64,000 bases of DNA from Shigella phage SHFML-26: sequence record KX130862; one strand, 5' to 3'. The translations under genes were made by a program, and so were the position numbers. The notes beneath the pieces were generated by a model. That model was not told the DNA's origin and did no database searches. It saw only the letters and a program-made list of their open reading frames with translations. The stretch's first letter is position 1; each line of letters opens with the position of its first letter. Positions 2,038 to 62,976 of this stretch are shown here, one piece after another.

Positions 2038-2540
2038 TTAAAAGTATTTTTTAAAACTCATCATAACTTTATCATCAACATCATTATCAATCTGTGCAAC
2101 AAGGTAAGATGACAATTCTACTTCTTGTGGCGCAGATTGAACATTATCAGAATTAAGATATTCACGAATCCAAGGATATGGATGTTTAACCGGAGCATCG
2201 GTAATTGGGCATGGAAGACCACACTGCTTCATACGAGATACAGTTAAGTAATCAATAAAGCTCCACATGCTATTTGTATTTAATCCAGGAACATCTCCAT
2301 CTTTAAATAAATGAACTGCCCAATCTTTTTCTTGGCGGTTAACTTCCATGAAAATATCAACTGCTTCTTGTTCACACTCTTGAGCAATTTTAACCCATTC
2401 ATCGCCATCAGTACCAGATTGAAGTTGACGAATAATATATTGGGTGCCTTTAAGGTGAAGCTGCTCATCACGCGCAATGAACTTCATAATCTTAGCATTA
2501 CCTTCCATGATTTCCATATTCTTATGGAAGTTAAAGGTAC
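2038..2540 (-). CDS. nrdB: ribonucleotide reductase small subunit NrdB, exon 2
   Basis: MEIMEGNAKIMKFIARDEQLHLKGTQ... RNR beta C-terminal half; joins exon 1 in frame (676+503 nt = 393 codons). Confidence 0.85.
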
Positions 2541-3630
2541 CGTATGTTCGATTGAGCTCGCTAATTCTCAACCCGTTCTCTTATGAACTGCTGCATGTTA
2601 CCATGCAGTCCAGACTATATCACAATCCCGGAGGGATTCTCCCCATTTCGAGTCGCTTGACCCTACGTCCGAAGACTAGTCGTTGAACCTTGTTTTGCAA
2701 TTGTCGCCGTGCCATCGTTTATATGTTGATGGTGATAAATCTTTCTTATCACAATATGGACAATTCAATTGAATTCTATTTGGATTTAATTTACATCTGT
2801 CATTATGTTTTAGATAAAATCCAGGACCTTTACCAATGTGACCACAGAAATCACATGTGATTTCTTTTTGTGCAGGATGGGTCCCGTTCTTAACCATTTC
2901 TAATGTTTTTGCTGATGTTCTTTTCTTATGGTCTTCTGATAAGAAATGATGTGAACCGTCATTTACCCGTTTTGATTGAGTTTCTGACTGCATTTTACCA
3001 CCGCAAAATACATGAGTACCTTCTTTTATAGCTGCAATATTGCGTTCTTTAACTTTTGCAATATGCTCAGCTTGTTGAAAATTATGTATACCTAATGCAG
3101 CTCTATTTAAATTAGATTTACGCTGTATTTCACCATCTAAAAGATGAAATGTACCATTTTCTATCTTAGATTTAATAGAGGCAATATTTTTAGCTCGTAC
3201 TTCAGGGATATTAAAAATCTGGATTTCTCTAGATTTTGCGGCTTTAGAAGCTAATTCAGAAATTTCTTCAGGAGAATATTTCATTCTAAGCTTTATAGCA
3301 TGACAAGCCTGGTAATCTTTTTGAGCTAAATGTATATCATAATGTTCCTGTATAGAAAGGCACATCAAATTATCTAAATCATTATTTTCACGGTTACCGT
3401 CTTTATGATGGATTTCGTATGTTCTTCCATCAGAATCTTTAGGTATAGGTCCGTTAGCATCTATCCAAATTTTTCTATAGTTCAATTGTGCATCCTCTTA
3501 AAAGTATAATCATATTTATATTATACTAATTAAAGGTGCAAGCAAAACCTTGGCTGCTAGTTTTCCTATAAAGGACTTTCCAGCAATTAAAGGAGTTTTC
3601 GATAAACGTTACCGTTTAAAGGCGCATTTT
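2541..3630 (-). mobile_element. group I self-splicing intron in nrdB (about 1090 nt) carrying I-TevIII
   Basis: Exon 1 ends on U, intron ends on G; 3' core (approx 2571-2690) resembles the td intron 3' core at 8081-8225; contains an HNH endonuclease ORF. Confidence 0.8.
2676..3485 (-). CDS. I-TevIII: HNH homing endonuclease I-TevIII, full length (269 aa)
   Basis: Intron-encoded ORF with HHKDGNRENNDLDNLMCLSIQEHYDIH HNH motif and C-terminal Cys-rich zinc-finger-like region. Confidence 0.85.
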   Translation of the reverse strand: MNYRKIWIDANGPIPKDSDGRTYEIHHKDGNRENNDLDNLMCLSIQEHYDIHLAQKDYQACHAIKLRMKYSPEEISELASKAAKSREIQIFNIPEVRAKNIASIKSKIENGTFHLLDGEIQRKSNLNRAALGIHNFQQAEHIAKVKERNIAAIKEGTHVFCGGKMQSETQSKRVNDGSHHFLSEDHKKRTSAKTLEMVKNGTHPAQKEITCDFCGHIGKGPGFYLKHNDRCKLNPNRIQLNCPYCDKKDLSPSTYKRWHGDNCKTRFND

Positions 3631-4306
3631 ACGCAAAAGATACATAAAAACGAATTGCTTCTAAGGCATTAATAACGTGCAAACAGAGGTAAAGAGATTT
3701 CATTAAAGCACGTTTAGCTTCGGCTTCTTGTTTAATAGCTCGGTTTAAACGAAAATCGGCATCAGGAGATTCTTTAGCTAGTTCTACAAATTCTTTAGCA
3801 TTTTCCCATTCACGGGTTTTAATCAGAACGTCATCATAATAGCGTCCAATGGATTCAGCACGTTTCATAATAGCTTCATCTAATACAATCTCATCAAATA
3901 CCTTTGACGGATCAGTATAAAGATTTCGCATGATATGTGTATATGAACGGCTGTGAATAGTTTCACTAAAAGTCCATGTAGCAACCCATGTATCAAGACT
4001 CGGGTCTGAAATTAATGACATAAGTACAGCAGACGGCGCACGACCCTGAATGCTATCTAAAAGTGATTGATACTTCAGGTTGTTAGTAAAAATATTTTGC
4101 TGGTACTGAGGAAGCTTATTAAATTGTGCAGCATCCATCATCAAGTTTACTTCTTCAGGACGCCAAAAAAATGATAAAGATTTCTCAATAAGTTCTTCAA
4201 ATACTCTATGTCGTTGAATATCATATCGAGCTAAACCCAATCCAGAACCAAAAAACATCGGCTCAGTCAAAATATTAACAGGGGATGTATTAAAAACTGT
4301 ACTCAT
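3631..4306 (-). CDS. nrdB: ribonucleotide reductase small subunit NrdB, exon 1
   Basis: MSTVFNTSPVNILTEPMFFGSGLGLARYDIQRHRVFEEL... ending ...RFYVSFA then T of the split Cys codon; track ORF stop TAA lies in the intron. Confidence 0.85.
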
Positions 4307-4944
4307 TTAGAATCCTTAAATTTACATTTATCATAATGCCATCTTAAAGCATTGCCTTTATTAACTTTCTTGCCACAATGCGGACAAGGCGGATACTCTG
4401 TACCTTGCTTAGTTCTCAAAGAAATCAAATCACGGGTTTCTTTAGTATGAGGAACATCTCTTGTCGGAGAGATTGTACCATACATCGGATTAAGCACGCC
4501 GACTTTAGCAGCAGCTATATTCTTTTTAGCTTCTTCGGTTTTAGGTTTTCTCATGCGAGCTAAATGCTCTTTGGTAAATTTCCTTCCTTTAAGGGCTCTA
4601 CTTATCTTTTCTCTGGTTTCCATAGAAACTTCACGTCCTATAGCAGCTTCAGATAAACGTCGTCTACCTAATTCGTACAGTTGAGAAGAAATTTTATATG
4701 AGCGATTTTTACCAGTCAAGCACATTAAACCAAAAGCTTTCTTTAATCCTGGGGTGTCATATATTTTACATAAAAGCCAATGAGCTATAAAATGCTCTCT
4801 ACCTGTTAATTCAACTAAATTTTCTTTATCATCAGAACCTCCCATACATCTAGGGATTATATGATGTGTCTCTTTATATTCGGATAAAGGTTCCCGAGCC
4901 TGAGCTCGGGAAATTAGGTCATTATAGATTTTTTGATAATTCAT
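4303..4944 (-). CDS. mobE: freestanding HNH homing endonuclease
   Basis: 213 aa with ETHHIIPRCMGGSDDKENLVELTGREHFIAHW HNH motif and C-terminal CPHCGKK zinc ribbon; located between nrdA and nrdB. Confidence 0.65.
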   Translation of the reverse strand: MNYQKIYNDLISRAQAREPLSEYKETHHIIPRCMGGSDDKENLVELTGREHFIAHWLLCKIYDTPGLKKAFGLMCLTGKNRSYKISSQLYELGRRRLSEAAIGREVSMETREKISRALKGRKFTKEHLARMRKPKTEEAKKNIAAAKVGVLNPMYGTISPTRDVPHTKETRDLISLRTKQGTEYPPCPHCGKKVNKGNALRWHYDKCKFKDSK

Positions 4945-7208
4945 TACAATTTACACGCTGCACAATCGTCGGCTTTAGGAGTTTCTATTTCATAATCATC
5001 AGTACCAGAACCATCACGGGTATTATGATAATAGAAATTTTTAATGCCATAATACCATCCGTATAGCATGTCATCAATCATTATTGACATTGGAACCTTG
5101 CCTTTAGGGAAGATTTGGGGGTCATAGTATGTATTCGCCGAAGCTGATTGACAAACCCATTTCAGCATAATAGCTACCTGCGTAAGATAAGGTTTATTAC
5201 CTTTCTTAGCTAATTTCCATGTATAATCATATAGGTCTATGTTATGCTCAATATTGGGCACGACTTGATTAAAGGAGCCCTCTTTTGATTCTTTAACAGA
5301 GACTGGTCCACGTGGAGGCTCGATACCGTTTGTACTGTTAGAAACTTGGGAAGATGACTCACATGGCATAAGTGCTGATAATGTGCTATTACGGATGCCA
5401 AAGAGCTTAAGGTCTTCCCGCAGCGACGACCAGTCACAAACGTATTTTGGAGCTGCGATTTGGTCAATCTTTTTATTGTACCAGTCGATAGGTAATTCGC
5501 CTCGAGACCAACGAGTGTCTGAATAATATTCGCAAGGTCCTTTTTCTTTGGCGAGCTTAATGGATGCTTTAATGAGTCCATACTGTAATCTCTCAAATAG
5601 TTCATGTGTTAAATCGTTAGCATCTTCATAAGAAGCAAAGTTACTTGCCAACCAAGCTGCATAGTTGGTAACACCTACACCAAGGTTACGACGCTTTTTA
5701 GCTTTTTCTGCTTCAGGAACTGGATATCCTTGGTAATCCAACAGATTATCAAGAGCACGAACTTGAACTTCTGCCAATTCATTAATTTTATCTTGGTCTT
5801 GCCAGTCAAAATTATCTAGTACGAATGCAGAGAGAGTACACAATCCAATTTCAGCATCAGGACTATTCACATCATTTGTTGGAATAGCAATTTCACAGCA
5901 CAAGTTACTCTGACGAATAGGTGCCTTTTCACGAATAAACGGAGTATAGTTATTCGTATTATCAATGAACTGTACATAAATTCTTGCTGTTCCTGAGCGT
6001 TCAGTCATGAGCAATTCAAATAGTTCACGGGCTTTAATACGCTTTTTACGAATATTAGGGACTTTTTCTGCTGCTTCGCATAATTCACGGAAACGGCTTT
6101 GGTCTTTAAAATAAGAATAATAAAGCTCGCCACCCATTTAATGTGGACTGAACAAAGTAATGTAATCGTTCTTTCCGAATCGTTCCATCATCAAATCATT
6201 CAGTTGAACACCATAATCCATATGACGAATGCGGTTTTCTTCTACGCCTTTGTTATTTTTCAAAACGAGAAGATTTTCAACTTCCAAATGCCAAATAGGA
6301 TAATAAGCAGTAGCAGCGCCGCCACGAATTCCGCCCTGTGAACATGAGTTAACTGCAGCCTGAAAATGTTTCCAAAAAGGAATAACACCAGGATGGCATA
6401 CATCACCCATGCCAATCTCAGAACCTTCGGCACGAATCATACCAACGTTAATACCAATTCCAGCGCGTTTAGAGATATATTCAACAATTGAAGCGGAAGC
6501 CTTATTGATAGACTTCAATGAATCACCTGCCTCAATAACAACACATGAACTAAACTGTCGAGTCGGAGTACGGCAACCAGCCATAATAGGAGTTGGCAAT
6601 GAAATCTGTCGAGTAGATACTGCTTCATAAAAACGGATAACATGTTTTAATCTATCAACAGGTTCATCTTGATGCAATGCCATTCCAATAGTCATAAATG
6701 CAAACTGCGGAGTTTCATAAATTTGACCGGTGGTTTTATCTTTGACTAGATATTTTTCTTTTAATTGCATCGCTCCGGAATAAGTAAATTCCATATCCCG
6801 CTCGTGCTTAATTTTTGATTCTAAAAATGTAATTTCTTCCGCAGAATATTTTGACAATAATTCAGGGTCATATTTACCTTCATTTACACAGTAAGAAATA
6901 TGGTCAATAAATGAACGTGGTTCATACTGCCCATAAACATGCTTACGAAGAGCAAACATTAAACAGCGTGCAGCTACATATTGATAATCAGGTTCTTCAA
7001 CCGAAATAGAATTCGCAGCAGCCTTAATGACAATAGTCTGAATATCATCAGTTGTCATTCCATCACGGAGATAAGATTTAATATTTTCATATAATTCATA
7101 AGGATCTACTGATGTTCCTTCAGCTGCCCAAGATAAAACTTTAATAATTTTTTGTGGGTCAAAGCTCTGAGAAACACCACTACTTTTGATAACATTAATT
7201 AATTGCAT
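4944..7208 (-). pseudogene. nrdA: ribonucleotide reductase large subunit NrdA, reading frame interrupted by in-frame TAA at 6138..6140
   Basis: Track ORFs 6138..7208 (356 aa, ...LFSPH*) and 4944..6137 (397 aa, MGGELYYSYF...) are one RNR alpha frame split by a single stop codon; 356+1+397 = 754 codons. Confidence 0.85.
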
Positions 7209-8077: not shown

Positions 8078-9093
8078 CATTATGTTCAGATAAGGTCGTT
8101 AATCTTACCCCGGAATTATATCCAGCTGCATGTCACCATGCAGATCAGACTATATCTCCAACTTGTTAAAGCAAGTTGTCTATCGTTTCGAGTCACTTGA
8201 CCCTACTCCCCAAAGGGATAGTCGTTAGGCATTTATGTAGAACCAATTCCATTTATCAGATTTTACACGATAAGTAACTAATCCAGACGAAATTTTAAAA
8301 TGTCTAGCTGCATCTGCTGCACAATCAAAAATAACCCCATCACATGAAATCTTTTTAATATTACTAGGCTTTTTACCTTTCATCTTTTCTGATATTTTAG
8401 ATTTAGTTATGTCTGAATGCTTATGATTAAAGAATGAATTATTTTCACCTGAACGATTTCTGCATTTACTACAAGTATAAGCAGAAGTTTGTATGCGAAC
8501 ACCGCACTTACAAAACTTATGGGTTTCTGGATTCCAACGCCCGTTTTTACTTCCGGGTTTACTGTAAAGAGCTTTCCGACCATCAGGTCCAAGTTTAAGC
8601 ATCTTAGCTTTAACAGTTTCAGAACGTTTCTTAATAATTTCTTCTTTTAATGGATGCGTAGAACATGTATCACCAAACGTTGCATCAGCAATATTGTATC
8701 CATTAATTTTAGAATTAAGCTCTTTAATCCAAAAATTTTCTCGTTCAATAATCAAATCTTTCTCATATGGAATTTCTTCCAAAATAGAACATTCAAACAC
8801 ATTACCATGTTTGTTAAAAGACCTCTGAAGCTTTATAGAAGAATGGCATCCTTTTTCTAAATCTTTAAAATGCCTCTTCCATCTCTTTTCAAAATCTTTA
8901 GCACTTCCTACATATACTTTATTGTTTAAAGTATTTTTAATCTGATAAATTCCGCTTTTCATAAATACCTCTTTAAATATAGAAGTATTTATTAAAGGGC
9001 AGTCCTACAATTTAGCACGGGATTGTCTACTAGAGAGGTTCCCCGTTTAGATAGATTACAAGTATAAGTCACCTTATACTCAGGCCTCAATTA
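8078..9093 (-). mobile_element. td group I self-splicing intron (1016 nt) carrying I-TevI
   Basis: Intron begins UAAUUGAGGCCUGAGUAUAAGGUGACUUAUAC... right after exon 1 GGU and ends ...CUGAACAUAAUG; matches the T4 td intron as recalled. Confidence 0.9.
8225..8962 (-). CDS. I-TevI: GIY-YIG homing endonuclease I-TevI (245 aa)
   Basis: MKSGIYQIKNTLNNKVYVGSAKDFEKRWKRH... GIY-YIG N-terminal domain, Zn finger and C-terminal DNA-binding region; inside the td intron. Confidence 0.9.
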   Translation of the reverse strand: MKSGIYQIKNTLNNKVYVGSAKDFEKRWKRHFKDLEKGCHSSIKLQRSFNKHGNVFECSILEEIPYEKDLIIERENFWIKELNSKINGYNIADATFGDTCSTHPLKEEIIKKRSETVKAKMLKLGPDGRKALYSKPGSKNGRWNPETHKFCKCGVRIQTSAYTCSKCRNRSGENNSFFNHKHSDITKSKISEKMKGKKPSNIKKISCDGVIFDCAADAARHFKISSGLVTYRVKSDKWNWFYINA

Positions 9094-12824: not shown

Positions 12825-13457
12825 TCATAGCTGGCATAATTCGCAATACTCTGGGTCTTCGAGAGGTATCCAACCTGAGTTGAAATACTTTACCATCGAT
12901 TTAGCAGTTGTATCAGTTATATTTATATTACCTTTAACTCTTCGCCATCCAGGAGTTTTACCGTACAGATTAGAGGATAATAATAACACATAATTCTCGT
13001 AAGCGATATGAGATAATTTCCAAGACTCTATATTAGCTCGTGATGTTTTCCAAGGTCTAAAATCGTCACGGTTCATATAATTAGCCAATCTCATATGCTC
13101 TCTAACTTCCGGGTCTTTGGCTGGATGAGTTTCACCACTCACACCAAATCCACCACCAGCATATACCAGATTAAAATAGTCTGGATTATCTCTGGCATTT
13201 ACTTCAAGTTGGTATTTTCGTTCTGCTTCAATAACATCCAAGTCATCATCAATTTGAATTATTTTAACGCTCGGTTTTTGATGCATTACCGCATTCAAAA
13301 ATCTTTTTTGTTTACATGAGCTCCAGTATTCCTTTCCAGAAGAGTCATATATTATTCCGTTCTCAAATGAGCAATTTAATTTACTACCGATATAGTAGTA
13401 TGGCGGAGTCTTATTTTTGACACGGTCTTCAAATGTAAACCAATATACTATATTCAT
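12825..13457 (-). CDS. segG: GIY-YIG-type freestanding endonuclease (SegG-like)
   Basis: 210 aa with N-terminal IVYWFTF...YYIGSK GIY-YIG-like motif; between 32 and 59. Confidence 0.6.
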   Translation of the reverse strand: MNIVYWFTFEDRVKNKTPPYYYIGSKLNCSFENGIIYDSSGKEYWSSCKQKRFLNAVMHQKPSVKIIQIDDDLDVIEAERKYQLEVNARDNPDYFNLVYAGGGFGVSGETHPAKDPEVREHMRLANYMNRDDFRPWKTSRANIESWKLSHIAYENYVLLLSSNLYGKTPGWRRVKGNINITDTTAKSMVKYFNSGWIPLEDPEYCELCQL

Positions 13458-21440: not shown

Positions 21441-24400
21441 ATGGCTACTTTAAAACAAATACAATTTAAAAGAAGCAAAACTGCAGGTCAACTTCCTGCT
21501 GCTTCAGTATTAGCCGAAGGTGAATTGGCTATTAATTTAAAAGATAAAACAATTTTCACAAAAGATGACTCAGGCAATGTTATAGAATTAGGTTTAAAAT
21601 ATGGAGGAACAATTGATGGTTCTTTAACTGTTAATGGAAATATAATTGGAAATTTAACAGGTAACGCTGCAACTGCAACGAAATTAAAAACAGCACGAAA
21701 AATTAATGGTATATCCTTTGATGGGTCAAAGGATATCACGCTAACTCCATCTGACATAAATGTCAATAGCACAACATTTATAAAAAATAATGGCGAATTA
21801 CCTGTTGATGCTAATTTAGATGAGTATGGGCCTGTTGAAGAATATCTTGGAGTTTGGTCGAAAGCAACTTCAACCAACGCTCAACCAGCAAATAAATTTC
21901 CAGAACAAAATGCTGTAGGTGTGCTAGAAGTATTTGTGGCCGGTCAATTTGCTGGTACTCAGAGATATACAACTAGATACGGAAATGTTTATATTCGTTC
22001 CTTGACTGCTACATGGAACGGAGTAAATGGTCCGTGGAGTGTGTGGCGAAATATTCAATCCGGTACTCGTCCACTGTCAACAACGATTGATCTTAATGAT
22101 CTAGGAGGCGCTGAACACTTTGGTTTGTGGCGAAATAGTTCAAATTCCATTGCTACCTTTGACAGAAATTTCCCAGAAGAAGGATCGTCAGCTCAAGGAC
22201 TTTTAGAAGTATATGAAGGTGGAAACTATTCTCGCACACAGAGATATACGACCAGATTTGGTGTTGTTTATACTCGCTGTCTTACTGCTGCGTGGGATGC
22301 TTCTGCGCCTAAATGGGGACCGTGGCAACAAGTCGGTAATGTCACACCAGCGACTTTTTATGATGGAGATCTGAATGATTTTAAAACTCCTGGGTTATAT
22401 AATATTTTAGGCACTGATGCCGTTATTAATTGTCCTACAGGCGAAGGTTTACCAGCCGTTATTGTTGGTTTGCTGGAAGTTAAACAGCGTGCTTCTGGTG
22501 GTGCTATTTTCCAAAAATTTACTACTGCCGGAACAGGTGCAACTACCCGCGATCGTATTTTTGAGCGCGCATACACCGGCGGTGTTTGGGGTACATGGAA
22601 CGAAGTATATACATCTTACTCTCTTCCAATTACTTTGGGTATGGGTGGTATTAAATCTAACTTAGCAGAGTTAGACTGGCAAGCATTTGATTTTGTTCCT
22701 GGTAGTATGTTTAGCGTTCCTTTGAACAAAATAAAGAACATGCCAGCTAATATGGATTGGGGTACGATTGACGGAAACTTAATTATGTTTTCTGTTGGTC
22801 CTAGCGAGCACACCAGCACAGGACGTACTGTTCAGGTTTGGCGTGGAACTGTATCCCAGACAAACTATCGTTATTTTGTCGTTCGTGTATTCGGTAATCC
22901 AGGGAGTAGAACATGTACAGTTCGACGCGTTGTTCTTGAAGACGGATCACATACTTGGACTGCTAAACAAGATTTTAATGGCGCAGTTAACTTTAACTCT
23001 ACTGTTAACCTTAATAACACTACCACATTTAAAACAGAAGTTAAATTCCGCTCGTTGAATGCATTCCGTATGTATGGCGGAAAATTTGGTACATTTTTAC
23101 GTAATGATGGAGAGAGTCTTTATATTCTTTCCACCGACGAAGATGATCAAGATGGAAACTTTAATACAAATAGACCTTTCCGTTATGAATTAAGAACTGG
23201 TGATGTTACTTTGGGTGGTGTTAGTGGTGCTAACGTTTTAAAATTAAAACGTGATTCTCTCACCGCATTTTTTGGTGGTGATATTAACATGAAAGGCACG
23301 ATGACTTTTGACGCCGGACGTTTAGGATCACGAGATTATTTTAAATTTAACCATTGGGGTGATAGCAATAACGCTCGTGATAACATCATCCAGTTAGAAG
23401 ATAGTCAAGGCGCCCATTTTTCCACTGAACGTACTTTAGCGACAGGTGCAATTAAAACTCGTTTCTTTGGCGAAACATTCACTGATGGTACATTATACCT
23501 AAATCAGATGAATAATAGCTCTGAACGATTCTCTATCAACAATTGGGGAAATTCAGAAGTTGGTCGCGCGGCAGTATTGGAAGTCGGCGATTCAAAAGGT
23601 TATCACTTCTATGCTGAACGCAGGACAGATAACAGTTTGATGTTTGATGTTGCTGGTTCTTTGACCGTGCATGGACCTAGCGGAATAACCATCAAAAACT
23701 CAACTGGTGCACGACATATCTGGTTTAGAGATGATAGCGATGCAGAAAAGGCTGTTATCTGGGCTACAGATGAGGGTATTTTACATATTCGCAATAATCA
23801 TGGGGGTTCATTTAGTCATCACTTCCAGGGTGCAATGATTAAAGTGGGAGAGCGTGTTCCTTATGCCGGAGATCAAGGGCTTATTCGCGGTGAAGTTTCT
23901 GGTGGTGCTTATGTGAATTGGAGAGATCGCCCTGCTGGTTTGTTGCTTGACTGTCAACAAAGCGTTGATAGTGCTCATGCTATTTGGAAAGCGGTTGATT
24001 GGGGGCGTAACTTCATCGCTGCTCTGGACGTTCATTGTCCCGGTGATAGTAATAATACTGCGACAGCGATTCTTCATGTTCAGGCTGCTGATTATCAATT
24101 CCATGCAAATGGGAGCTTTGATGCCAGTGGCAACGGAAACTTTAACGATGTTTATATTCGATCAGACCGTCGCCTTAAAGACAATATAGAAGATTATACC
24201 GGAAATGCGTTAAGTTTGATTGGTAAACTGAAAGTGAAAACTTACGATAAAGTTAAATCTCTTAAGGACCGTGAAATTATCGGTCATGAGATCGGCATTA
24301 TCGCACAGGATTTACAAGAAATATTACCAGAAGCGATTAATATTTCGAAAATTGGCAATCTTGATAAACCAGACGAAGTTCTGACAATTTCTAACTCCGC

Positions 24401-24515
24401 TGTGAATGCTCTTTTAATTAAGGCCATTCAGGAAATGAGTGAAGAAATTAAAGAATTGAAAACGCCTTTCTTCACTAAAATTGCTCGCAAAATTAGTAAA
24501 TATTTTAAATTCTAA
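21441..24515 (+). CDS. 37: long tail fibre distal subunit gp37 with C-terminal intramolecular-chaperone-like domain
   Basis: 1024 aa; N-terminus [13 protein letters not shown]...[11 protein letters not shown] conserved; C-terminus ...[34 protein letters not shown]... resembles self-cleaving chaperone domains of other phage fibres. Confidence 0.9.
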
Positions 24516-24551
24516 CAACAAGGGGGAAATGCCCCCTTTGGAGTATAAATT

Positions 24552-25334
24552 ATGGCAGTAGTTGGAGTTCCTGGCTGGATTGGAAGTTCAGCCGCAAATG
24601 AAACAGGACAACGCTGGATGAGTCAAGCGGCTGGTCAATTAAGATTGGGTGTTCCTTGCTGGATGAGTCAATTTGCAGGTCGCTCACGAGAAATTATTCA
24701 CACGCTTGGAGCAGACCATAACTTCAATGGTCAATGGTTCCGAGATAGATGTTTTGAGGCAGGTAGTGCACCTATAGTGTTTAATATCACTGGAGATTTA
24801 GTATCATATTCTAAAGATGTTCCTTTATTCTTCATGTACGGAGATACACCAAATGAATATGTTCAGTTAAATATACATGGCGTAACGATGTATGGACGTG
24901 GCGGTAATGGTGGTAGCAATAGTCCTGGCTCAGCTGGAGGTCATTGTATTCAAAACGATATTGGTGGGAGACTAAGAATTAATAATGGTGGAGCTATTGC
25001 TGGCGGCGGTGGCGGCGGTGGCGGCGGATATTATTCTCCTTTTTCACGAATGAGATTAACCTTTGGCGGTGGTGGTGGGCGTCCGTTTGGTGCACCTGGC
25101 GGATCTATTGATATGCAATCAGGCGCAACTGCTGGTACTATTTCTGCACCTGGCTCAGGATCCGTGAATGGTATCTATAATGGTGGAAACGGTGGTGAAG
25201 TAGGTTCCGCGGGAGGTAGATGCAATATTCGCGGTCAAGGATCTGAATATAATGGCGGCGCTGCTGGTTATGCTGTCATAGGGTCTGCTCCAACGTGGCA
25301 AAATGTTGGAGCAATATATGGTCCAAGAGTATAA
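24552..25334 (+). CDS. 38: gp38 receptor-recognising adhesin (T2-type, glycine-rich motifs)
   Basis: 260 aa [33 protein letters not shown]... with [11 protein letters not shown] and [14 protein letters not shown] glycine-rich motifs; unlike the short T4 gp38 chaperone. Confidence 0.85.
25002..25028 (+). repeat. (GGC GGC GGT)x3 simple repeat encoding the poly-Gly tract of gp38
   Basis: Direct trinucleotide repeat within gp38 coding sequence. Confidence 0.6.
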
Positions 25335-30350: not shown

Positions 30351-30354
30351 AAAT

Positions 30355-30643: not shown

Positions 30644-30653
30644 AGTATTCTCC

Positions 30654-30740
30654 TCAACTATTTTTAAAACCTAAAATACCAAAGTTTTTAAGATTGTCAC
30701 GATAGAACTGCATCACATGTTCGTTATGGAAATTACTCAT
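30654..30740 (-). CDS. stp: Stp peptide
   Basis: 28 aa [28 protein letters not shown], matching the start of T4 Stp as recalled; hand-translated. Confidence 0.7.
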
Positions 30741-31198: not shown

Positions 31199-31258
31199 AT
31201 TAATTTCCTCTAAATTATTTTCTACTCCAAGGCCGCATGGATACACACGGCCATTAAA

Positions 31259-31474
31259 TTAATCGTCGCAGTCGACGCTCAATTCCCAGAATTCTTCTAC
31301 GGTATAAGTTTCAGTATCATTTTCAATACAGAAACGTTCATTACTATTGTTTGCTAAAGTAGCATTAACTGTCATTTTTTCGCTAGTGCTCTTAAGAGGT
31401 GAAATACGAATTAACTGATCACCGTTATCTAAACAAAAAATTTCACCAACTTTTACATCTTTAAAACTTTTCAT
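31259..31474 (-). CDS. hypothetical protein (71 aa)
   Basis: Track ORF. Confidence 0.45.
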   Translation of the reverse strand: MKSFKDVKVGEIFCLDNGDQLIRISPLKSTSEKMTVNATLANNSNERFCIENDTETYTVEEFWELSVDCDD

Positions 31475-34518: not shown

Positions 34519-36696
34519 TTAGGCCGCAAGGGCCTTCATAGTTTTAGCGATTTGAGAAACTTCATCATCACTTAAAGAGTTGCGATAACCGATGAAGTCG
34601 GAAACAATACGGAATTTCTTGGTAAACTCAGCAACCATTTTATCGCTGTTTTTTGAAGCATTATTTGATAATACATCAAAAAGATTAGTTACTGTCCAGA
34701 TGTCATGACCGATGGTATCTTTTCCACCATTAAAATATACGCCCCGTAATGAACTAACCATATTAGCGAGTCGTGTATATTCTTCAGAAACTTCATCTAT
34801 ACTGAAGTACTTCATCATAAAATCTAACTCAGGATACTTGATAATTTTATCAATATATCGTTTAGCTGAACTTGAATAACCTACATACTTATCATAATCT
34901 ACATCATCAAAAGCATCTACATATAAATCACGCAAAGCTTCAAAAATACATTGGCACTGACCGAGTTCTTTTACCTTTTTCTGCAAAAGCGGACGAATAA
35001 CATAAAATTCATTAATGCCAATAAGATTAGCCATACGAATCAAAATATTCATAGATGGATGACAAAGAGATGTAGTACCATCCATAGAGAAAATATCAGA
35101 ACGATGCATATACGCTACATACCCAGTAATTTCATCTGCTTCTGATGTGAGCGTAAATAATTCCTCTTTTTCCCAGCGCCCGTCTTTAATTTCAAACTTA
35201 AATGCTGTAGCAGCTTTAGGACGAGGAGCTTTACTTTTAACTACCTTTGGAATATAACTTTTTACTAAAGCTTCAATTTCTGACAAATAATGAATGTTAA
35301 CTTCATCACTTTCAAACATCGCCATAATATCAGGGAGTAAATCAATCTGCGATTCTACTTCTGGATTAATAAACAGAAGACGTTCGTTATGATGAATATT
35401 CAAAGTGTTATTAAATTCACTATCATCTAACGCTCGTGCTAATCCACGAACAATATTAACACGATTTTTAATATTATCAATAACGATATTAATTTTTGTT
35501 GTATTAATACCAAACAGACGATAACTTGATGCAACGGCTGAAGTTTCATGACTTTGCTTAATGCGCTTCAGTCGAGGGTCAAGATTTACTTCATACACAA
35601 CTCCTGCATTGCATAACTTACTATCAGGTTCAAACATGCTTTGCATCTTCTTATATGACAGATTTTTAGTCGTAAATTTGACTGAATTACTAATCATATA
35701 ATCTCGAGCAGAATACCCCATCTTCATCAATTCACGATATGTGTGACGAGGAGATGTAGATTCTTTAAATCGTTTTACATCTTCATTAAATGCTTTCTCA
35801 CTGAGTTCTTTAACTCGTTCAATAATATTTTTACGAGTGCGATCATCCAGTGAAAGAGCCTCGCGAGATGGAGCAATATCAAGTGAACCCATTGGAAACT
35901 TAATGTAATTCACTTCATTGCGAATGCTTAGCCAGTTACGGTCTCTAATAACACCATCAATAGGATAAACAATACCGCCATAGATAGCATATAATCCACC
36001 ACGATCAGGCCAGTATCTTTCTGGATTTACACCATAATAATCATCAAAATCAGGAAAATAATCAATTTCGCGGTCAAGACCATTAATGATAGCCAAATCT
36101 TTGAACGGTCGCATGATATAAGAAACTTCATAAGCAAAGTTTCTAAAATCTTTTTCTTCAACTGGAACTACGATTTCAATACCAGTTTTATCATCTGGAC
36201 CCATTTCTTTTACGAATGTAGGTTTAATCTGTGGGCCATCACCATCCATGTAAGCTACATAACCACGAATTTCACCTTTATGATACGAAGTAATACTAAA
36301 CGTATCAGTATAACTAAACGGAGATTTAGAACCTAAACCAAATCCGCCAATAAAGTCATTAGATTCAGCTTTAGATGAACTGAAGTATGAATTATACAAC
36401 CCAGGAGAATTATCATCACCTTGAATATCAAAATCACTCATACCCGGACCAAAATCTCGACAAACAAATCGCGGATCTAAACGTCCAGGAACTTGTATAA
36501 TAAATTTTTCAGGATTTCCATTAAGTGCATGAGCATCAATCATGTTAGTAATCAATTCACGGACTACTGCGCGAATCTTGTTTGTATACAAATCAGATGA
36601 CAGAATTTTAAATACTTTAGGAGATGCTGTGATGCTAAATGCTTTTGATTTAGAACCATTACCAAGAATTGTTTCTTTTTCAGTAGTGATAATCAT
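34519..36696 (-). CDS. rIIA: rIIA protein
   Basis: 725 aa [44 protein letters not shown]... Confidence 0.95.
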
Positions 36697-36706
36697 AATT
36701 TCCTCA

Positions 36707-36910
36707 TTAATTCATATTACGCTTAATAACTTCGGCAACTTCTAGTAGTTCATCTTTAGTTGCGGTGTCGGATTGAATTTTATCTCTAATATCCTTAAAG
36801 CGGTTTTTAAATTCTTCGGCTTCTCCCATATCGAAAAAGCGTTGAATGATTCTATATTCTCGATGAACTGCTTTATCAAAAAGTTCTAAATTTACTTTAT
36901 ATGATTTCAT
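36707..36910 (-). CDS. hypothetical protein (67 aa)
   Basis: Track ORF between gene 39 and rIIA. Confidence 0.5.
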
Positions 36911-36964
36911 TTCAATATCCTCATTTGCCCAATTAATTATACCACATCCTTGTGGTAAAGTAAA

Positions 36965-38785
36965 CTACTGACTCATCCATTCTTTACGAAGGTCAGCATT
37001 ATCTCCCATGAGCATTTCAAAAAGCTCTTTCCAGTTCTCAGGAAGTTTAACAACATCATATACTGGGTTTTGAATCATCTCACGATATTCAGATTTTTCC
37101 AAAGAGCCAAGTCCCTTAATATAACGGATGCTATGTTTAGGTAGAGCATCTTTGGCACTCTCATATTCAGCGACTGTATAAAACCATTCTTGTTTTTTAC
37201 CGACCTGAGCGATGATTACAGGAGTTTTGACAAAACGAATTCGTCCTTGCTCAAACAATTCTGGCCAATTACTAAAAAATCCGAGCAGAGAAGGATAAAT
37301 GCTTCCTAGACCATCATGGTCAGCATCAGTCATAATAGCAATATTATGATAATTCAAGTTTTCAGCTTTTTCACCGAGAACTAATCCAGTGATTGCGCAA
37401 ATATCAAACAGTTCTTTGTTTTTAAGCATATCTGCATAAGACATACCCCAACTGTTGAGAACTTTACCGCGCAATGGATAACCACCGTGAAGTTCTTTAT
37501 CACGAACATCAATAAGATATCCGATAGCAGAATCACCCTCAGTCAAGAAAAGAGTAGTATCAGCATCTTTACCGCAAAGATTCGCTTTGATATGTTTATG
37601 AACCTTAGCTTTAGAAGCCTTTTTAGCTGCTTTAGTTTCTGCTGCTTTTTCTGCCGCCAATTTACGAGCCAAAGCAGCTTCAATAATCGGCATTAGAATT
37701 GCTTCATTATTTAGAATAGCACGTGAAATCTTTTTAGCATCAAGCTGAATATGACTACGGATTTCACCAAATGGAGAAGTCAAACGCTCTTTAGTTTGAG
37801 AATCAAATCGCATGTTTTTCATATCACGGACAAACATAACGATAGTCAAACATTCTTTAACGCGTGCTTTAGTCACATCAATTTTGAACTTACGTTTGAT
37901 TTGTGGAATAAGGTCTTCACAAATATCATCCATAACACAGTCAATGTGATGGCCACCATTCTTAGTGTGGATGTTATTCACATAAGTTAATTGACGAAAT
38001 CCATCCGGTGAACGACCAACTGCAATAGAACAATTTTCTTGTTCTTGAACAATAGCATGCTCATCATATTGGCGTGCATATTTCTTAAAATTGCCCTGAA
38101 CCTTTTTACCATTAAAGGTAAATTGAATATCAGGATAAACTACTGCAAGTGTCTGGAGACGATCTAATGTAATGTCAAGATAAACTTGGGACAGCTCATT
38201 AGTTTCAAATGACATAAAATCAGGAATGAAAGTAACACGAGTTCCTTTCCATTTTCCAGGAATATCTTCCCATGATTTATTTTCCATGCCATTTGAACAA
38301 CGAACTACAATATTATTTTGACCATCACCAGTTTCACCGACAAACATCACAGAAAAAATGTTAGTTAAACTAGAACCAACACCGTTCATACCACCGGTGA
38401 CACGTTCTTTATCATCACCGAAGTTACCACCTGCTTTTGGAATAGTCCATGCAGCAACAGGACCAGGAATTTCTTCACCGGTAGGTGTTTTAACCATCGC
38501 TTGTGGAATACCACGACCGTTATCTTCAACTGTTACTTGATTGTTTTTAATAGTAACATTAATTTTATTTGCGAATTTAAACTTAGTACGAATACCTTCA
38601 TCTACTGAGTTATCGATAATTTCATCAATAAGCTTAACAAGACCAGGTACATACTGAACACTTTCCCATTTACCAAACAGAAAGCGCTCATGCATTTCAT
38701 TAGCTGAAGAGCCAATGTACATGCCGCTACGCTTTTTGATATGTTCAATATCACTCAGAATTTTAATTTCATTCTTAATCATCAC
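36965..38785 (-). CDS. 39: DNA topoisomerase II large subunit, uninterrupted (covers T4 gp39 plus gp60 equivalent)
   Basis: 606-aa GyrB-like ORF MMIKNEIKILSDIEHIKKRSGMYIGSS... running through the TOPRIM/C-terminal region without the gene-60 split. Confidence 0.9.
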   Translation of the reverse strand: MMIKNEIKILSDIEHIKKRSGMYIGSSANEMHERFLFGKWESVQYVPGLVKLIDEIIDNSVDEGIRTKFKFANKINVTIKNNQVTVEDNGRGIPQAMVKTPTGEEIPGPVAAWTIPKAGGNFGDDKERVTGGMNGVGSSLTNIFSVMFVGETGDGQNNIVVRCSNGMENKSWEDIPGKWKGTRVTFIPDFMSFETNELSQVYLDITLDRLQTLAVVYPDIQFTFNGKKVQGNFKKYARQYDEHAIVQEQENCSIAVGRSPDGFRQLTYVNNIHTKNGGHHIDCVMDDICEDLIPQIKRKFKIDVTKARVKECLTIVMFVRDMKNMRFDSQTKERLTSPFGEIRSHIQLDAKKISRAILNNEAILMPIIEAALARKLAAEKAAETKAAKKASKAKVHKHIKANLCGKDADTTLFLTEGDSAIGYLIDVRDKELHGGYPLRGKVLNSWGMSYADMLKNKELFDICAITGLVLGEKAENLNYHNIAIMTDADHDGLGSIYPSLLGFFSNWPELFEQGRIRFVKTPVIIAQVGKKQEWFYTVAEYESAKDALPKHSIRYIKGLGSLEKSEYREMIQNPVYDVVKLPENWKELFEMLMGDNADLRKEWMSQ

Positions 38786-38834
38786 TTATCCTCGTTTGGT
38801 TTCGGGAATATTATACTCCGGTAATCATAAAGCT

Positions 38835-38853
38835 AAAGGCCCGAAGGCCTTTT
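38835..38853 (-). other. RNA stem-loop (UUCG loop on transcript) upstream of gene 39
   Basis: aaaGGCCcgaaGGCCttt palindrome. Confidence 0.45.
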
Positions 38854-39121
38854 ATTTAAAACGGATAGTCGAATCCTTAAAGAACAACCCAGAACATACG
38901 GTTCCTTCTACTTTTTGCCCAGTAGGTCCAATAGCACGAAATCCAGTATGCTGGAAATCATTTTCAGAGCAACCGAACCAGTTATATCCAGTGATTTCAA
39001 TATTAGTAAAACCACTTGAAGACAAAATTTTAGTTGCATTATCAGCATCAGTACATCCTACTAAAGACACTACTAGTACTAATGCCGCGATAGAACGATT
39101 AATATATTTCATAATTTTCAC
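38852..39121 (-). CDS. putative lipoprotein (89 aa)
   Basis: Signal peptide with lipobox LVVSLVGC. Confidence 0.55.
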   Translation of the reverse strand: MKIMKYINRSIAALVLVVSLVGCTDADNATKILSSSGFTNIEITGYNWFGCSENDFQHTGFRAIGPTGQKVEGTVCSGLFFKDSTIRFK

Positions 39122-39489
39122 TCAAATTTAATGGCTTGAAGGAGACTAATAATTCTCAAGCGACTTCCTTCATCTTTAACTGTAAAAGAAAGAGGGTCAC
39201 CAGACTTCATAGTGATAGTGCATTCAAAATCAAAATCTTCGGGAACTTCTTCGAAGAAGTCAAATTCTTCATCATAAATTAAAACTTCACTCCGAAGACT
39301 GTGAAGAATTTTTCCGTCATTTCCAGATGCTGTACTAATCATTGTAACATTATTACCTTTCATATCTTCAACGATAAATTCGCTTGTAGATATTACATTA
39401 CTAATAGAACCATTCCTATAAATAGCAGAAAATAGATATTTCTTTTCTTCACCTTCGCGAATGCGATATTTCTTACCAATTTTAAACAT
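39118..39489 (-). CDS. hypothetical protein (123 aa)
   Basis: Track ORF. Confidence 0.5.
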   Translation of the reverse strand: MFKIGKKYRIREGEEKKYLFSAIYRNGSISNVISTSEFIVEDMKGNNVTMISTASGNDGKILHSLRSEVLIYDEEFDFFEEVPEDFDFECTITMKSGDPLSFTVKDEGSRLRIISLLQAIKFE

Positions 39490-50663: not shown

Positions 50664-50734
50664 TATTTTTCCTTTCAATTCATGGGTTAGTAGATTAATT
50701 ATACAATAAATATATAAAGCAATAAGGAGGATAT

Positions 50735-56638: not shown

Positions 56639-57487
56639 TTAATCAACTGCTATTGGATGAATAGCATTAAACTTATGAAACGCTTCTGATTTTTCTTTGC
56701 GCGAAACACACATGCGAAGAACCTTTAATGGCTCGTCTTCTTCACCTAATGATTTTCGTTTTTCAATATTAGAAGTTTTCCAACGAGCTTGCTCTGGAAA
56801 CTCTCTATTGATTTGCTCAAGCGCTCTATTATGTTTAGAATTACTACGAATTGAGCTACATCCGCCTGGAGCTTGCGCTTTTCCAGATACAACCAGATAT
56901 TTGAACAAGGCCAAATGCGGATAACCTTGATTAATTAAATTGAGAAATGCATACATATCTTCGCATAAATCAATTTTTCCATACCCAATTTGTTCTGTTG
57001 TAAGTTTTCCAAGGTCATACCAAGTATTCGTGAATCCATATGAATTTTCACGATAATTACCCCAAGATGAAGTAATTTTAAAAATTGGTAAACGAGCATG
57101 ACCATGATAATACCCGCAATCCATGGCATCTTCAACGTATTGAATCAATTCATAGAACTGTTCACGAGTTAGCTGATTAATTTTATCTACGCAGCGACGA
57201 TCATCTTTCTTTCGCATTGAACTCATACGAATAGTAGTATCATCATCAATCATCCAAATTCGTTGACCTGCATACATATCAGTAATTGCTTTACGAGTAC
57301 CAGCAATTCCGTTAACATCATCAGGAATAGTTATAATTTTAGCTCTAGACCCGTAAGCGTCATAATAAGCTTTTTCTTCGTGTTCACGCACTACAATATG
57401 AGGTTCATAATCAGTCGGAAACATATCAAGGGCAGAAACTGCCCCTACGCGTTGATAGCTTGGAATTACGAATTGAATCATTTCCAC
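56639..57487 (-). CDS. putative glycosyltransferase (DXD motif) at the position of T4 beta-glucosyltransferase
   Basis: 282 aa with WMIDDDTT DXD-like motif; does not match T4 beta-gt as recalled; adjacent to gene 42. Confidence 0.5.
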   Translation of the reverse strand: MEMIQFVIPSYQRVGAVSALDMFPTDYEPHIVVREHEEKAYYDAYGSRAKIITIPDDVNGIAGTRKAITDMYAGQRIWMIDDDTTIRMSSMRKKDDRRCVDKINQLTREQFYELIQYVEDAMDCGYYHGHARLPIFKITSSWGNYRENSYGFTNTWYDLGKLTTEQIGYGKIDLCEDMYAFLNLINQGYPHLALFKYLVVSGKAQAPGGCSSIRSNSKHNRALEQINREFPEQARWKTSNIEKRKSLGEEDEPLKVLRMCVSRKEKSEAFHKFNAIHPIAVD

Positions 57488-59195: not shown

Positions 59196-61706
59196 TCAGC
59201 CAAACAGGAAGTCTAACGAAGCTTTTTCTTCATAGTCCATACCTGCCGATTCACACATACCTGCAAGCGGCTTAACAAACGATTTTTGGAACAAAGTTGA
59301 GTAGTCAATCCAAGATAGTACGTCAGAACGAATTTCTTTTGGAAGTTCTGTACCTGATGGCCAAGCAATGCACTTGTCACCAAATGGATTTCCTTCACGT
59401 AATGGAAGAACCATTACTTTATTTCCATCCAAAATTGGAGCTACACCTAAACCACTAACAGCTCGACGATAAGTTAGCACACCACGAATATGGAATGGGC
59501 ATTTAAATCCTGGCCAACCTTTATCATCATATTTCGCTATATCGTTCGCAGTTTTTACTTCAGCAATAACTTTATAGTCAAGTTGACGATATTCTTTCTC
59601 GAAGTTCTTGTAGTATTCTTGGACAGACTCTTCACCTTCCTGAAGAATACGACGAATACTTTCTTCGAGAGCTTCTTGCACCGCTTTTGGTGTTGAACTC
59701 TGCTGAGTTTCCATACCCATGATTTTTAGATGCGGTTCGGCAAATCGCTTATCTTCCATATCATAAACGTTCAGAGCATAACGTTTTTTCGCTTTCCAAA
59801 ATCCACCAACACCCTTTGAACCAAGCGGAGGGCAAGAAATAGCTTCACGGTCCATATGCATCAGATGCTCGCGGTTATTCATATAATCACATAACTCACG
59901 ATATGCAACATCAATCATAGGTTCCATCTTTTTCTTACCAAACTGATTCATGAATTCAACTAAATCATTTTGTTCTTTAAAGCGGTCAAGACCTACTTTT
60001 TCAATTACTTTATCTACACAAACATATACCGAATCAGTATCACCTGCTGCGATGAAATCTTCACCATTAGTTCCACATACTTTATTCAGATATTCATTAA
60101 TTTTGCGAGCAATCCATTGAATACCGACTTGACCGAAAATTGTGATAGCAGTAGCATTTCGCAAATCATAGTAGCGGAAATGAATATTACCAAGAGCACC
60201 ATAAAGACTGTTAATAAGAATTTTACGGTTCAACTGATTTGTGTTAGCAAGTGTAGCAGCTTTTTCACATTCTTCAATCAGACTGTTAAGAACAGATTCG
60301 GTGTAATTCGATAATTCGTTTAAGAAATCATCATTGAACTTAACATATCGTTCAACTTCCGGTTTAGTTGAACAGGACCCTGCGCCTTTCATAATAATCT
60401 TTTTAATAGCTTCGGCATTCATTTCTTCAGCGAACATTTTCTTTTTCCAATCTTTACGCTGGAAAAATACTTTAGCGATTTCCTTTGGAATGATACCTTC
60501 TTGATGCTTATCATACATCCATCCATTCGGAGAACAAGAATATTCATCACTCGGTTTAGGAGCTGTTCCTGCGATATATTCATGAATTGGATGAACTTTA
60601 AACTGCCCACGAATAGTCTCAGGACTAATGTTAACCTGACGAATAATGCTCGGATACAGAGACGTCAAGTCAAAACTCATAATATATCGACGAGCAATTG
60701 GTTTAGGTTCAAATACAAATGCACCCGGAAAACTCTGTTTAACGTGCGAACCTTGTTGAGGAATAACCTTATGTTCACCTTTCAATGAGTTAAAAATAAT
60801 AGCATCCCAAGTTTTAATAGGACTCATTACACCAGAAAAAGGCATTTTAGCATAATAAGACATACTTAAAACTAGATCGATAAACCCGCGAATTTTATCA
60901 ATTGCTTGAACTGATTCTACGTCAATGATGTTATAACTAATGTATCGTTGATGATTAGTCTCACGAAGTTTATTAATAGGACCGTCGTATGGTAATTTAC
61001 CTTTTTTGGTTTCATGTTGAGCAACTGATTCCAAAGAGAATGACGGCAAATTAGTAAATGCGAATTTCTTATACAAATCTAAATAATCAAGAATAGATAC
61101 GCCATCAATAGAATAAATTTCTTTGCTACCGTACATATTTTGAATTAGTTTAGATTTTACCCGACCGATTGGAGAGAAACGTTTCATACTGCGTTCACCT
61201 AGAATCATTTTAACGCGATTCATAATATATGGAACGTCAAACCCCTCAATATTCCAACCAGTAAAAATAGCAGGTCGTTTCTGTTCCCAGAGATTGATAT
61301 ATTCCATGAGCATATCACGCTCATTATCGAATGGCATATAAATTACTCGGTCAAGAATTTCTTGAGGAACTTCATCACCACCTTCACAGTCAAGCTTAGC
61401 AGCTAACTTTGCATCCCATTTTGATACTGAACCGTACATTGAATTCAAAAGGTCGAAAACATAAAAACGATCATCAATTGAATCGTAATGAGTGATAGCA
61501 TCAATTTCATATTCAGCTTTCATTGGGTCAGGAAATTTATCACCAGTAACCTCAATGTCACAGTTAGCTACACGAACAAATTTTCGGTCATAAACAATTT
61601 CTGAACCATACGTATCACTGATATAAGCGAGTTTAAAATCGTTCATACCGAGAGCTTCGAGACCGATGTCTTCCATTCGTTTCATCCAATCTCGAGCATA
61701 TTTCAT
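59196..61706 (-). CDS. 43: DNA polymerase gp43 (ORF as called; canonical N-terminal ~63 codons lie upstream and are interrupted)
   Basis: 836-aa family-B polymerase starting MKYARDWMKRMEDIGLEALGMNDFKLAY..., corresponding to T4 gp43 from about residue 63. Confidence 0.9.
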   Translation of the reverse strand: MKYARDWMKRMEDIGLEALGMNDFKLAYISDTYGSEIVYDRKFVRVANCDIEVTGDKFPDPMKAEYEIDAITHYDSIDDRFYVFDLLNSMYGSVSKWDAKLAAKLDCEGGDEVPQEILDRVIYMPFDNERDMLMEYINLWEQKRPAIFTGWNIEGFDVPYIMNRVKMILGERSMKRFSPIGRVKSKLIQNMYGSKEIYSIDGVSILDYLDLYKKFAFTNLPSFSLESVAQHETKKGKLPYDGPINKLRETNHQRYISYNIIDVESVQAIDKIRGFIDLVLSMSYYAKMPFSGVMSPIKTWDAIIFNSLKGEHKVIPQQGSHVKQSFPGAFVFEPKPIARRYIMSFDLTSLYPSIIRQVNISPETIRGQFKVHPIHEYIAGTAPKPSDEYSCSPNGWMYDKHQEGIIPKEIAKVFFQRKDWKKKMFAEEMNAEAIKKIIMKGAGSCSTKPEVERYVKFNDDFLNELSNYTESVLNSLIEECEKAATLANTNQLNRKILINSLYGALGNIHFRYYDLRNATAITIFGQVGIQWIARKINEYLNKVCGTNGEDFIAAGDTDSVYVCVDKVIEKVGLDRFKEQNDLVEFMNQFGKKKMEPMIDVAYRELCDYMNNREHLMHMDREAISCPPLGSKGVGGFWKAKKRYALNVYDMEDKRFAEPHLKIMGMETQQSSTPKAVQEALEESIRRILQEGEESVQEYYKNFEKEYRQLDYKVIAEVKTANDIAKYDDKGWPGFKCPFHIRGVLTYRRAVSGLGVAPILDGNKVMVLPLREGNPFGDKCIAWPSGTELPKEIRSDVLSWIDYSTLFQKSFVKPLAGMCESAGMDYEEKASLDFLFG

Positions 61707-61895
61707 TGATGGTAAATTTTTGAGGTAGCGCTAGTTTTTACCATAGATGTCTTTGTACTTTGACTCTTCCTTACAATGCCTAAACATAGTTGGAAGATAT
61801 TCTACTTCACGAGTACGTTCCTTTCCGTTTTCATCAATATAACGTTCAACAATGTTATTTCCGACTGTTTCAATAGAGATATAAAATTCTTTCAT
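61707..61895 (-). other. 43: interrupted 5' segment of gene 43 (54 codons, TAG, 8 codons, in frame with the main ORF)
   Basis: Reverse complement encodes [65 protein letters not shown]; coordinates approximate. Confidence 0.6.
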
Positions 61896-62196: not shown

Positions 62197-62976
62197 TTAA
62201 TTACCAATCGTATATTTAGGAACGAGTTTCCATTCATGCTTTTGTTTAAAAGAAATAACTCGGAAGTTATTAGTTAAATCTTTCATAAAAGTTCTTTGAC
62301 CAGGAACGATTTCAATCAGTCCCCAATCTTCTAATAGCCATGCAATCGAATCACGACGAACTTCATCTTCTTCTGTCATTTCAACTTGGCGACCATCCAT
62401 ACGAAGCATTTCTTTAAAATGAACGATATAGTGCTTGCAGATTTCAGTCAATCGACGAATCATCTGCTTCATCATTTCAATTTTATCTTCATCGGTCGGT
62501 TGACCGAACGTAATAACTCGGCAGCGTGACTGAAGTGGTTTAATAATACCATCAATATTATTAGCAGTAATAATAATACTGCAGTTTGAACTATAAGCTT
62601 CCATAAAGGAACGAAGATGTCGCTGAGACTCTGCTAACCCTGAGCGGTCAAATTCATCAATAACGATTACTTTTTGACGACCATCAAATGAAGCTGCACT
62701 AGCAAAATTAGTCAAAGGACCACGAACGAAATCAATTTTACAGTCTGATCCATTCACAAACATCATATCAGCATTTACATCATGACACAATGCTTTTGCT
62801 ACAGTTGTTTTACCTGTTCCTGGAGAAGGAGAATGAAGAATAATATGTGGAATTTTACCTTTACTTGTAATAGATTTAAAGGTTTCTTTATCAAAGGCGG
62901 GAAGAATACATTCATCGATAGTAGATGGACGATATTTCTGTTCAAGAATGTGTTCTTTTTCATTTACAGTAATCAT
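62197..62976 (-). CDS. 44: in-frame fusion ORF: clamp-loader gp44 N-terminal ~185 aa joined to RegA C-terminal ~76 aa
   Basis: MITVNEKEHILEQKYRP...SPSPGTGKTT...DEFD...SRC...MIRRLTEICKH then YIVHFKEMLRMDGRQVEMTEEDEV...KYTIGN without a stop. Confidence 0.8.
   Translation of the reverse strand: MITVNEKEHILEQKYRPSTIDECILPAFDKETFKSITSKGKIPHIILHSPSPGTGKTTVAKALCHDVNADMMFVNGSDCKIDFVRGPLTNFASAASFDGRQKVIVIDEFDRSGLAESQRHLRSFMEAYSSNCSIIITANNIDGIIKPLQSRCRVITFGQPTDEDKIEMMKQMIRRLTEICKHYIVHFKEMLRMDGRQVEMTEEDEVRRDSIAWLLEDWGLIEIVPGQRTFMKDLTNNFRVISFKQKHEWKLVPKYTIGN

Follow-up and report, generated by a model that had tools for sequence, protein, structure and literature searches.

Background

The type II topoisomerases of bacteriophages T2 and T6 consist of two subunits (gp39 and gp52), while that of T4 consists of three (PMC11461880). 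The equivalence of the T6 39-protein to the 39- and 60-proteins of T4 is already the title statement of Huang, Wei and Casjens (1985, J Biol Chem), as cited in PMC11461880, and the GenBank annotations of T4 and T6 state the same. The explanation of the T4 arrangement by a mobile cassette dates from 2011 (Bonocora et al. 2011, as described in bioRxiv 10.1101/2022.08.31.505936 and PMC11461880), and the structures of the unsplit enzyme date from 2024 (PMC11461880). An unsplit T-even gene 39 is therefore known, and there is nothing new in finding another. In T4 and some of its relatives, the MobA homing-endonuclease/bypass cassette splits the gene into genes 39 and 60, inserting a 50-nt untranslated gap. 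The cassette is described as an element of 1097–1106 nt which displaces about 64 nt of parental sequence; its homR segment is 67–81% identical to the parental sequence, and in clade 1, the T4 clade, 9 extra cassette-derived nt lie past the gap (bioRxiv 10.1101/2022.08.31.505936). As a homing element, it has inserted independently in six clades, each of which has uninserted relatives of 96–99% identity, and its transfer into T2 has been shown experimentally (bioRxiv 10.1101/2022.08.31.505936). The site at which MobA nicks T2 goes back to Bonocora et al. 2011, as that preprint describes it. At the protein level, the residues inserted in T4 protrude from the Toprim domain and leave activity unaffected, and ATP-dependent DNA relaxation has been demonstrated for T6 Topo II (PMC11461880).

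Gene 39 is a single open reading frame

The window studied here, a stretch of 64,000 nucleotides of Shigella phage SHFML-26 (KX130862), is a Tequatrovirus segment colinear with T4 from ~135.9 kb through the genome end to ~32.9 kb. According to the ORF listing, its minus strand carries a continuous ORF at 36965..38785, of 606 aa when counted from a GTG. The second codon is an ATG (38782), and because this is the annotated start of gene 39 (MIKNE...) in T4, T2 and T6 and is preceded by a GAGGA 6 nt upstream, it is favored over the GTG, so that the product is most likely 605 aa long. The 606-aa frame given in the initial annotation is thus open from the GTG on the minus strand, while its product is probably one residue shorter. 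The chance of 606 open codons is estimated at ~1e-20 (at ~35% GC, a stop being expected every ~14 codons), although the identity of the ORF is settled by homology anyway. The features of the gene are as follows:

36965..38782, minus strand: gene 39, unsplit CDS of the GyrB-like large subunit, most likely 605 aa, stop included (ORF, Pfam, T4/T2/T6 alignments, PDB match)
38785..38783, minus strand: GTG, mechanical ORF start
38789..38793, minus strand: GAGGA, Shine-Dalgarno sequence 6 nt upstream of the ATG (sequence read directly)
38336..38644, minus strand: GHKL ATPase, HATPase_c PF02518, aa 47-149 (E 2e-9, 38.3 bits, cut-off 26.4)
37631..38035, minus strand: transducer, DNA_gyraseB PF00204, aa 250-384 (E 1.4e-13, 51.1 bits, cut-off 27)
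37313..37540, minus strand: Toprim core with E415/D486/D488 (E...DxD) and D490, and the DNA-contacting loop Y435-S444 with R438 and K440 (residues at T6 positions)
36971..37228, minus strand: TOPRIM_C, aa 519-604, inside the part encoded by gene 60 in T4 (Pfam)

HATPase_c, DNA_gyraseB and TOPRIM_C all exceed their curated Pfam cut-offs; of the two Toprim-related models, TOPRIM_C scored in the gene 39 protein and the Toprim model itself did not at E<=0.001. The residues E415 (in TEGDS), D486, D488 and D490 (in DADHDG), R438, K440 and K556 are all present at the positions they occupy in T6 Topo II, where E415, D486 and D488 form the metal-binding E...DxD motif and R438, K440, K556 and D490 contact the DNA (PMC11461880). 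The gene is flanked as in T-even phages, with rIIA.1 (36707..36910) and rIIA (34519..36696) on one side and 39.1-like ORFs on the other. Between 39.1 and 39.2 lies an ORF of 123 aa (39118..39489, minus strand) without a Pfam match, which corresponds to a 372-nt insertion relative to T4. All six public contigs examined also have this ORF, as does T6, where its annotation notes a similarity to RB69ORF005c. A scan of positions 36600-39200 for sigma-70 promoters and terminators returned sites no more frequently than in shuffled sequence.

Comparison with T4, T2, T6 and cellular enzymes

For comparison with T4, gene 39 and the two gene 60 exons were translated from NC_000866 and aligned to the window protein. 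Residues 1-473 match T4 gp39 1-473 with 466 of 473 identical (98.5%), and the C-terminal part matches T4 gp60 27-160 with 128 of 134 identical, the mismatches all lying within the first ten aligned positions. Residues ~477-605 thus represent T4 gp60 31-160, with a final 124 aa identical to gp60 37-160, and no counterpart of T4 gp39 aa 474-516 or gp60 aa 1-30 was found in the window protein by this alignment. This bears out the initial annotation in that one GyrB-like ORF stands for T4 genes 39 and 60 and that its C-terminus does correspond to gp60; the gp60-equivalent part had been put at ~90 aa, and is in fact ~129 aa long, 114 of which lie beyond the bypass site. A 1-nt deletion compensated by a 1-nt insertion also sets the T4 reference apart from the window, T2 and T6 (window 37800..37805, T4 4346..4352), as a result of which residues 326-328 of gp39 read LIR in NC_000866 and FDS in the window, a small frame-shifted patch peculiar to that record.

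The window protein aligns without gaps with gp39 of T2 (AP018813 2447..4264; 604 of 605 identical, F70L) and of T6 (MH550421; 603 of 605, D173T and Q526H), the unsplit state seen in T2-like phages. The T2 gene product is likewise 605 aa long (nucleotide identity of the gene 96.0%), and across the MobA target region there is no difference to T2 over 108 nt. The T6 gene (nucleotide identity 97.8%) shares the length of 605 aa, the domain order, the catalytic residues, the two-subunit make-up with gp52 and the neighborhood, with 39.1, the RB69ORF005c-like ORF and 39.2 upstream and rIIA.1 and rIIA downstream; structures of T6 gp39 are available under PDB IDs 8YLU, 8YO1, 8YO5, 8YO7, 8YOD, 8YON and 9IMJ (Nat Commun 2024, PMC11461880). 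In a phmmer search of the PDB, 8ylu_C (T6 Topo II) was matched across residues 1-605 with 1385 bits, and 8yo3_C, an artificially fused T4 gp39-gp60 construct, was matched as well. More distant in sequence are GyrB/ParE and the N-terminal half of eukaryotic Topo II, which have the same ATPase-transducer-Toprim architecture (E-values of 1e-59 for human Topo II beta, 2e-47 for ParE and 3e-36 for GyrB). The phage enzyme differs from these cellular type IIA enzymes in relaxing but not supercoiling DNA, according to the literature, and in having a short partner (gp52, 442 aa). In the PDB search, the alignments to human Topo II alpha and beta, yeast Topo II, ParE and GyrB run unbroken across the split site, which indicates that continuity at this site is ancestral for the whole family.

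A further possibility is that a recoding signal of another kind, such as a frameshift or a short hop, persists unnoticed within the ORF. Nothing supporting it was found in the gene 39 ORF, a single frame is open from start to stop, and the protein follows T2 and T6 gp39, and likewise the solved T6 structure, residue for residue. This colinearity refutes the idea, whose probability we consider negligible.

The cassette site is empty

The genes of T4 encode the same enzyme, but 1117 nt are found in T4 where the window has 64 nt. According to blastn, window positions 39114..37365 correspond to T4 5661..3911 (96.2% identity) and positions 37300..36607 to T4 2793..2100 (99.1% identity); between both blocks, T4 has the 1117 nt in question (2794-3910) and the window 64 nt of "parental" sequence. 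Of the two, only T4 has the 43-aa C-terminal extension (CTE) of gp39, the mobA pseudogene, ORF 60.1, the 30-aa N-terminal extension (NTE) and the 16-aa homR of gp60, the 50-nt untranslated gap and the GGA take-off and landing codons, and the window has none of these. Two features mark the site in the window:

37310..37363, minus strand: "empty site", 54 nt encoding ENLNYHNIAIMTDADHDG (aa 474-491) (T4/T2 comparison)
37310..37312, minus strand: GGT codon of Gly491 with CTA (Leu) immediately after it, where T4 has its take-off GGA, UAG and 50-nt gap (no gap in the window)

The T4 equivalent of the 54-nt site is the MobA cassette (CTE, mobA, 60.1, NTE, homR). Between the two blocks, T4 aligns only weakly (80%) and only over the 35 nt that precede the bypass site, and this is homR, the diverged copy of the target region carried by the cassette. 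The bypass position is occupied in the window by GAT GGT CTA GGA without a break, and in T4 by GAT GGA TAG CCTTCGGGCTATC...50 nt...GGA TTA GGT. An in-frame stop, a matched GGA pair and a hairpin are all missing from the window at this position, and a search of the whole window for the T4 gap/hairpin sequence, in which up to 3 mismatches were allowed, returned nothing. By tblastn, T4 60.1 likewise had no hit in the window, whose only match to the T4 mobA remnant was a MobE-like ORF next to nrdA (4303..4944), which is unrelated to the gene 39 locus. The absence of an interruption, a bypass element or a mobA-type insertion, proposed from the sequence in the initial annotation, is thus confirmed, and a T4-type split gene was rejected, since T4 2794-3910, both extensions and the gap are all missing.

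The measurements made between the window and T4 fit the element as published (bioRxiv 10.1101/2022.08.31.505936) in every point. Because of the 9 extra cassette-derived nt beyond the gap, the window returns to high identity with T4 at 37300 and not at 37309. The 108 nt around the empty site which are identical to T2 include the region where MobA nicks T2, which leads to the prediction that the phage can receive the cassette, its allele representing a putatively intact MobA target.

The locus is almost certainly gene 39 of a T2/T6-type Tequatrovirus, encoding a type IIA topoisomerase large subunit in full and uninterrupted because it was never invaded by the MobA/bypass cassette. Not being invaded, the genome would simply have kept the ancestral "parental" allele. 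No evidence was found to contradict this; a minor reservation is that the allele differs from the characterized T6 gp39 at 2 residues and from that of T2 at 1. The same layout would nevertheless result if an ancestor had carried the cassette and lost it precisely, for instance by recombination with an uninvaded co-infecting phage. T-even genomes are mosaic, the identity of the window to T4, T2 and T6 shifts between the gene halves, lineages having lost the endonuclease or the bypass have been reported (bioRxiv 10.1101/2022.08.31.505936), and a recombinational replacement would leave no scar. The window, on the other hand, retains no remnant of the CTE, NTE, homR or gap, and the 54-nt site and the 9 nt following it are of the parental type, identical to T2, and not of the cassette type (80%). 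As the unsplit form is also the majority state (see below) and that of all cellular type IIA topoisomerases, an allele that was never invaded is the more parsimonious reading, and a scarless revertant is very unlikely. Were it one after all, the locus would exemplify a cycle of gain and loss of a homing element within the gene of an essential enzyme.

Frequency of the unsplit form and its value as a lineage marker

Positions 36600-39200 were compared with 50,697 phage records by megablast, and a record was counted as unsplit when a single place covered at least 80% of the query. Among the 564 records that matched, ~520 are unsplit, and the T4 cassette (T4 2794-3910) is present in 43 (T4 strains, RB55/RB59, HY01, HY03 and others), the two classes together covering essentially all matching records. 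The unsplit form is thus the majority as well as the ancestral state, and the absence of the cassette is common to ~92% of the relatives. Public assemblies contain the exact 605-aa protein in 620 blocks. The six such contigs shown have a constant context (39.1 / 39 / rIIA.1 / rIIA) and are 95-96.5% identical to the window; their gene 39 DNA differs from that of the window by 37-62 substitutions, of which ~90% are at third codon positions and none changes the protein, a signature of purifying selection on a working gene.

The initial annotation regarded the unsplit state as a useful lineage marker, which is overstated. Over the N-terminal 1419 nt, the window gene is 96.55% identical to T4 (split), 95.28% to T2 (unsplit) and 97.74% to T6 (unsplit), while over the 345 nt after Gly491 the values are 97.97%, 98.55% and 98.26%, respectively. 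In its N-terminal part the gene is thus closer to split T4 than to unsplit T2, and relatedness does not track the split or unsplit state. Considering this pattern, the nature of the cassette as a homing element and the unsplit form being the default state, the marker is a weak one which discriminates little and should not be used alone.

Genome context and homing endonucleases

The window does look T2/T6-like on other grounds, as its gp38 adhesin is of the T2 type and b-gt, segA and segF are absent. The adhesin is 260 aa long (PF05268, E 4e-72), and the product of gene 37 (distal tail fiber, 21441..25334, plus strand) is unrelated to that of T4 past the first 66 aa. In place of T4 segA and b-gt there is an ORF for a 282-aa glycosyltransferase of the TAGT family (56639..57487, minus strand).

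In the nrdB intron, the window has a full-length 269-aa HNH ORF of the I-TevIII type (2676..3485, minus strand), the T4 copy of which is a 97-aa remnant, the window having 476 additional nt at T4 ~138,845. Between nrdA and nrdB, the MobE-like HNH/NUMOD3 endonuclease ORF mentioned above (213 aa, minus strand) spans the equivalents of T4 mobE (61% identity) and nrdB.1 (99%). The I-TevI protein of the td intron (8228..8962, minus strand) is 100% identical to that of T4, and SegG (12828..13457, minus strand) is 99% identical. No segA, segF or mobA was found in the window by tblastn of the T4 genes. With T4-like I-TevI and SegG and these three genes absent, the homing-endonuclease complement mixes T4-like and T2/T6-like states.

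Window-unique changes in replication genes

A tblastn search of every T4 gene against the window, with follow-up comparisons, brought up lesions in nrdA, gene 43 and the 44/62/regA region, which are window-unique in the sense of not being shared by the relatives examined. In the last of these, a fusion ORF (62197..62976, minus strand, junction near 62432) joins gp44 aa 1 to ~186 in frame with RegA aa 46-122 (Pfam AAA and Translat_reg). It arises from a deletion of 1114 nt relative to T4 30208-31321, which has cost the window the C-terminal third of gp44 and gene 62, the gene of the clamp-loader small subunit. Genes 44, 62 and regA are intact in the 15 best phage matches listed and in 5 public contigs bearing the neighboring 73-aa ORF, and the gp44-RegA fusion protein is not on record in an exact-protein look-up of public assemblies. 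Gene 43 (CDS 59199..61895, minus strand) has an in-frame TAG at codon 55 (region 61706..61735), created by three single-base insertions within 20 nt (61713, 61726 and 61732, net +3) which are absent in T4 and HP3. The substitution D65Y adjoins them, and the remaining gp43 is 99% identical to that of T4. In nrdA (4947..7208, minus strand), codon 357 (~6138..6140) is TAA, where T4 and Sf23 have GAA. Codons 264-383 contain nine more window-unique changes (K264E, E269D, R271C, T273P, T284A, K287N, D371S, Y377C and D383V) at which Sf23 and T4 agree, while the rest of the gene differs only synonymously from the nearest relative. The dam methyltransferase gene is also absent, 40 nt (50684..50723) being found where T4 has 919 nt. 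It was considered as a further lesion and rejected, the dam-less layout being natural and common to many relatives which match in a single piece (e.g. phage BW-1, 99.3%).

Genes 43, 44 and 62 are essential in T4. The sequence as given would therefore not be that of a viable phage unless the lesions are artefacts; the source genome as it stands may not be viable, with the 44/62/regA deletion, which would be lethal in T4, reflecting either an artefact or a defective genome. This raises the question of whether the sequence is defective, altered or wrongly assembled and its continuous gene 39 ORF likewise an artefact or a relic without function, in which case the unsplit state would tell nothing of a working phage. 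The premature stops in gene 43 and nrdA and the 1.1-kb deletion, all absent from the relatives examined, are in favor of such a reading, as is the fact that, over 24 kb, no deposited phage exceeds ~96% identity to the window. Gene 39 is intact, though, and encodes a protein identical to the one in the 620 blocks of independent assemblies, from whose public copies its DNA differs only by protein-neutral substitutions, and the layout is common to ~520 deposited genomes. We therefore consider an artefact or relic at this locus to be highly improbable: the lesions elsewhere leave gene 39 untouched, and its reading as an allele that was never invaded is unaffected.

Partner subunit and significance of the locus

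The partner of gp39 is encoded ~6.6 kb away in the genome:

29025..30350, minus strand: gene 52, 442-aa GyrA-like partner, DNA_topoisoIV PF00521 (E 9e-77), 100% identical to T4 gp52 (tblastn and Pfam)

Together with gp52, gp39 (GHKL ATPase, transducer, Toprim and Toprim-C) would form an A2B2 enzyme that uses ATP to open a transient double-strand break in one DNA duplex and move a second duplex through it. In this scheme, the N-terminal ATPase gate would capture the T-segment, while the Toprim domain and the gp52 tyrosine would cleave the G-segment, through which the other strand would then be passed. ATP-dependent relaxation with double-strand passage is what the 99.7% identity to the T6 enzyme leads us to infer for the window enzyme, and the same near-identity points to a comparable activity and subunit stoichiometry.

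The locus is useful only as routine annotation, in that it identifies gene 39, shows the MobA cassette to be absent and the uninvaded target sequence to be kept. If the allele is indeed a naive and cleavable MobA target, co-infection with a MobA+ relative would convert the phage to the split state.
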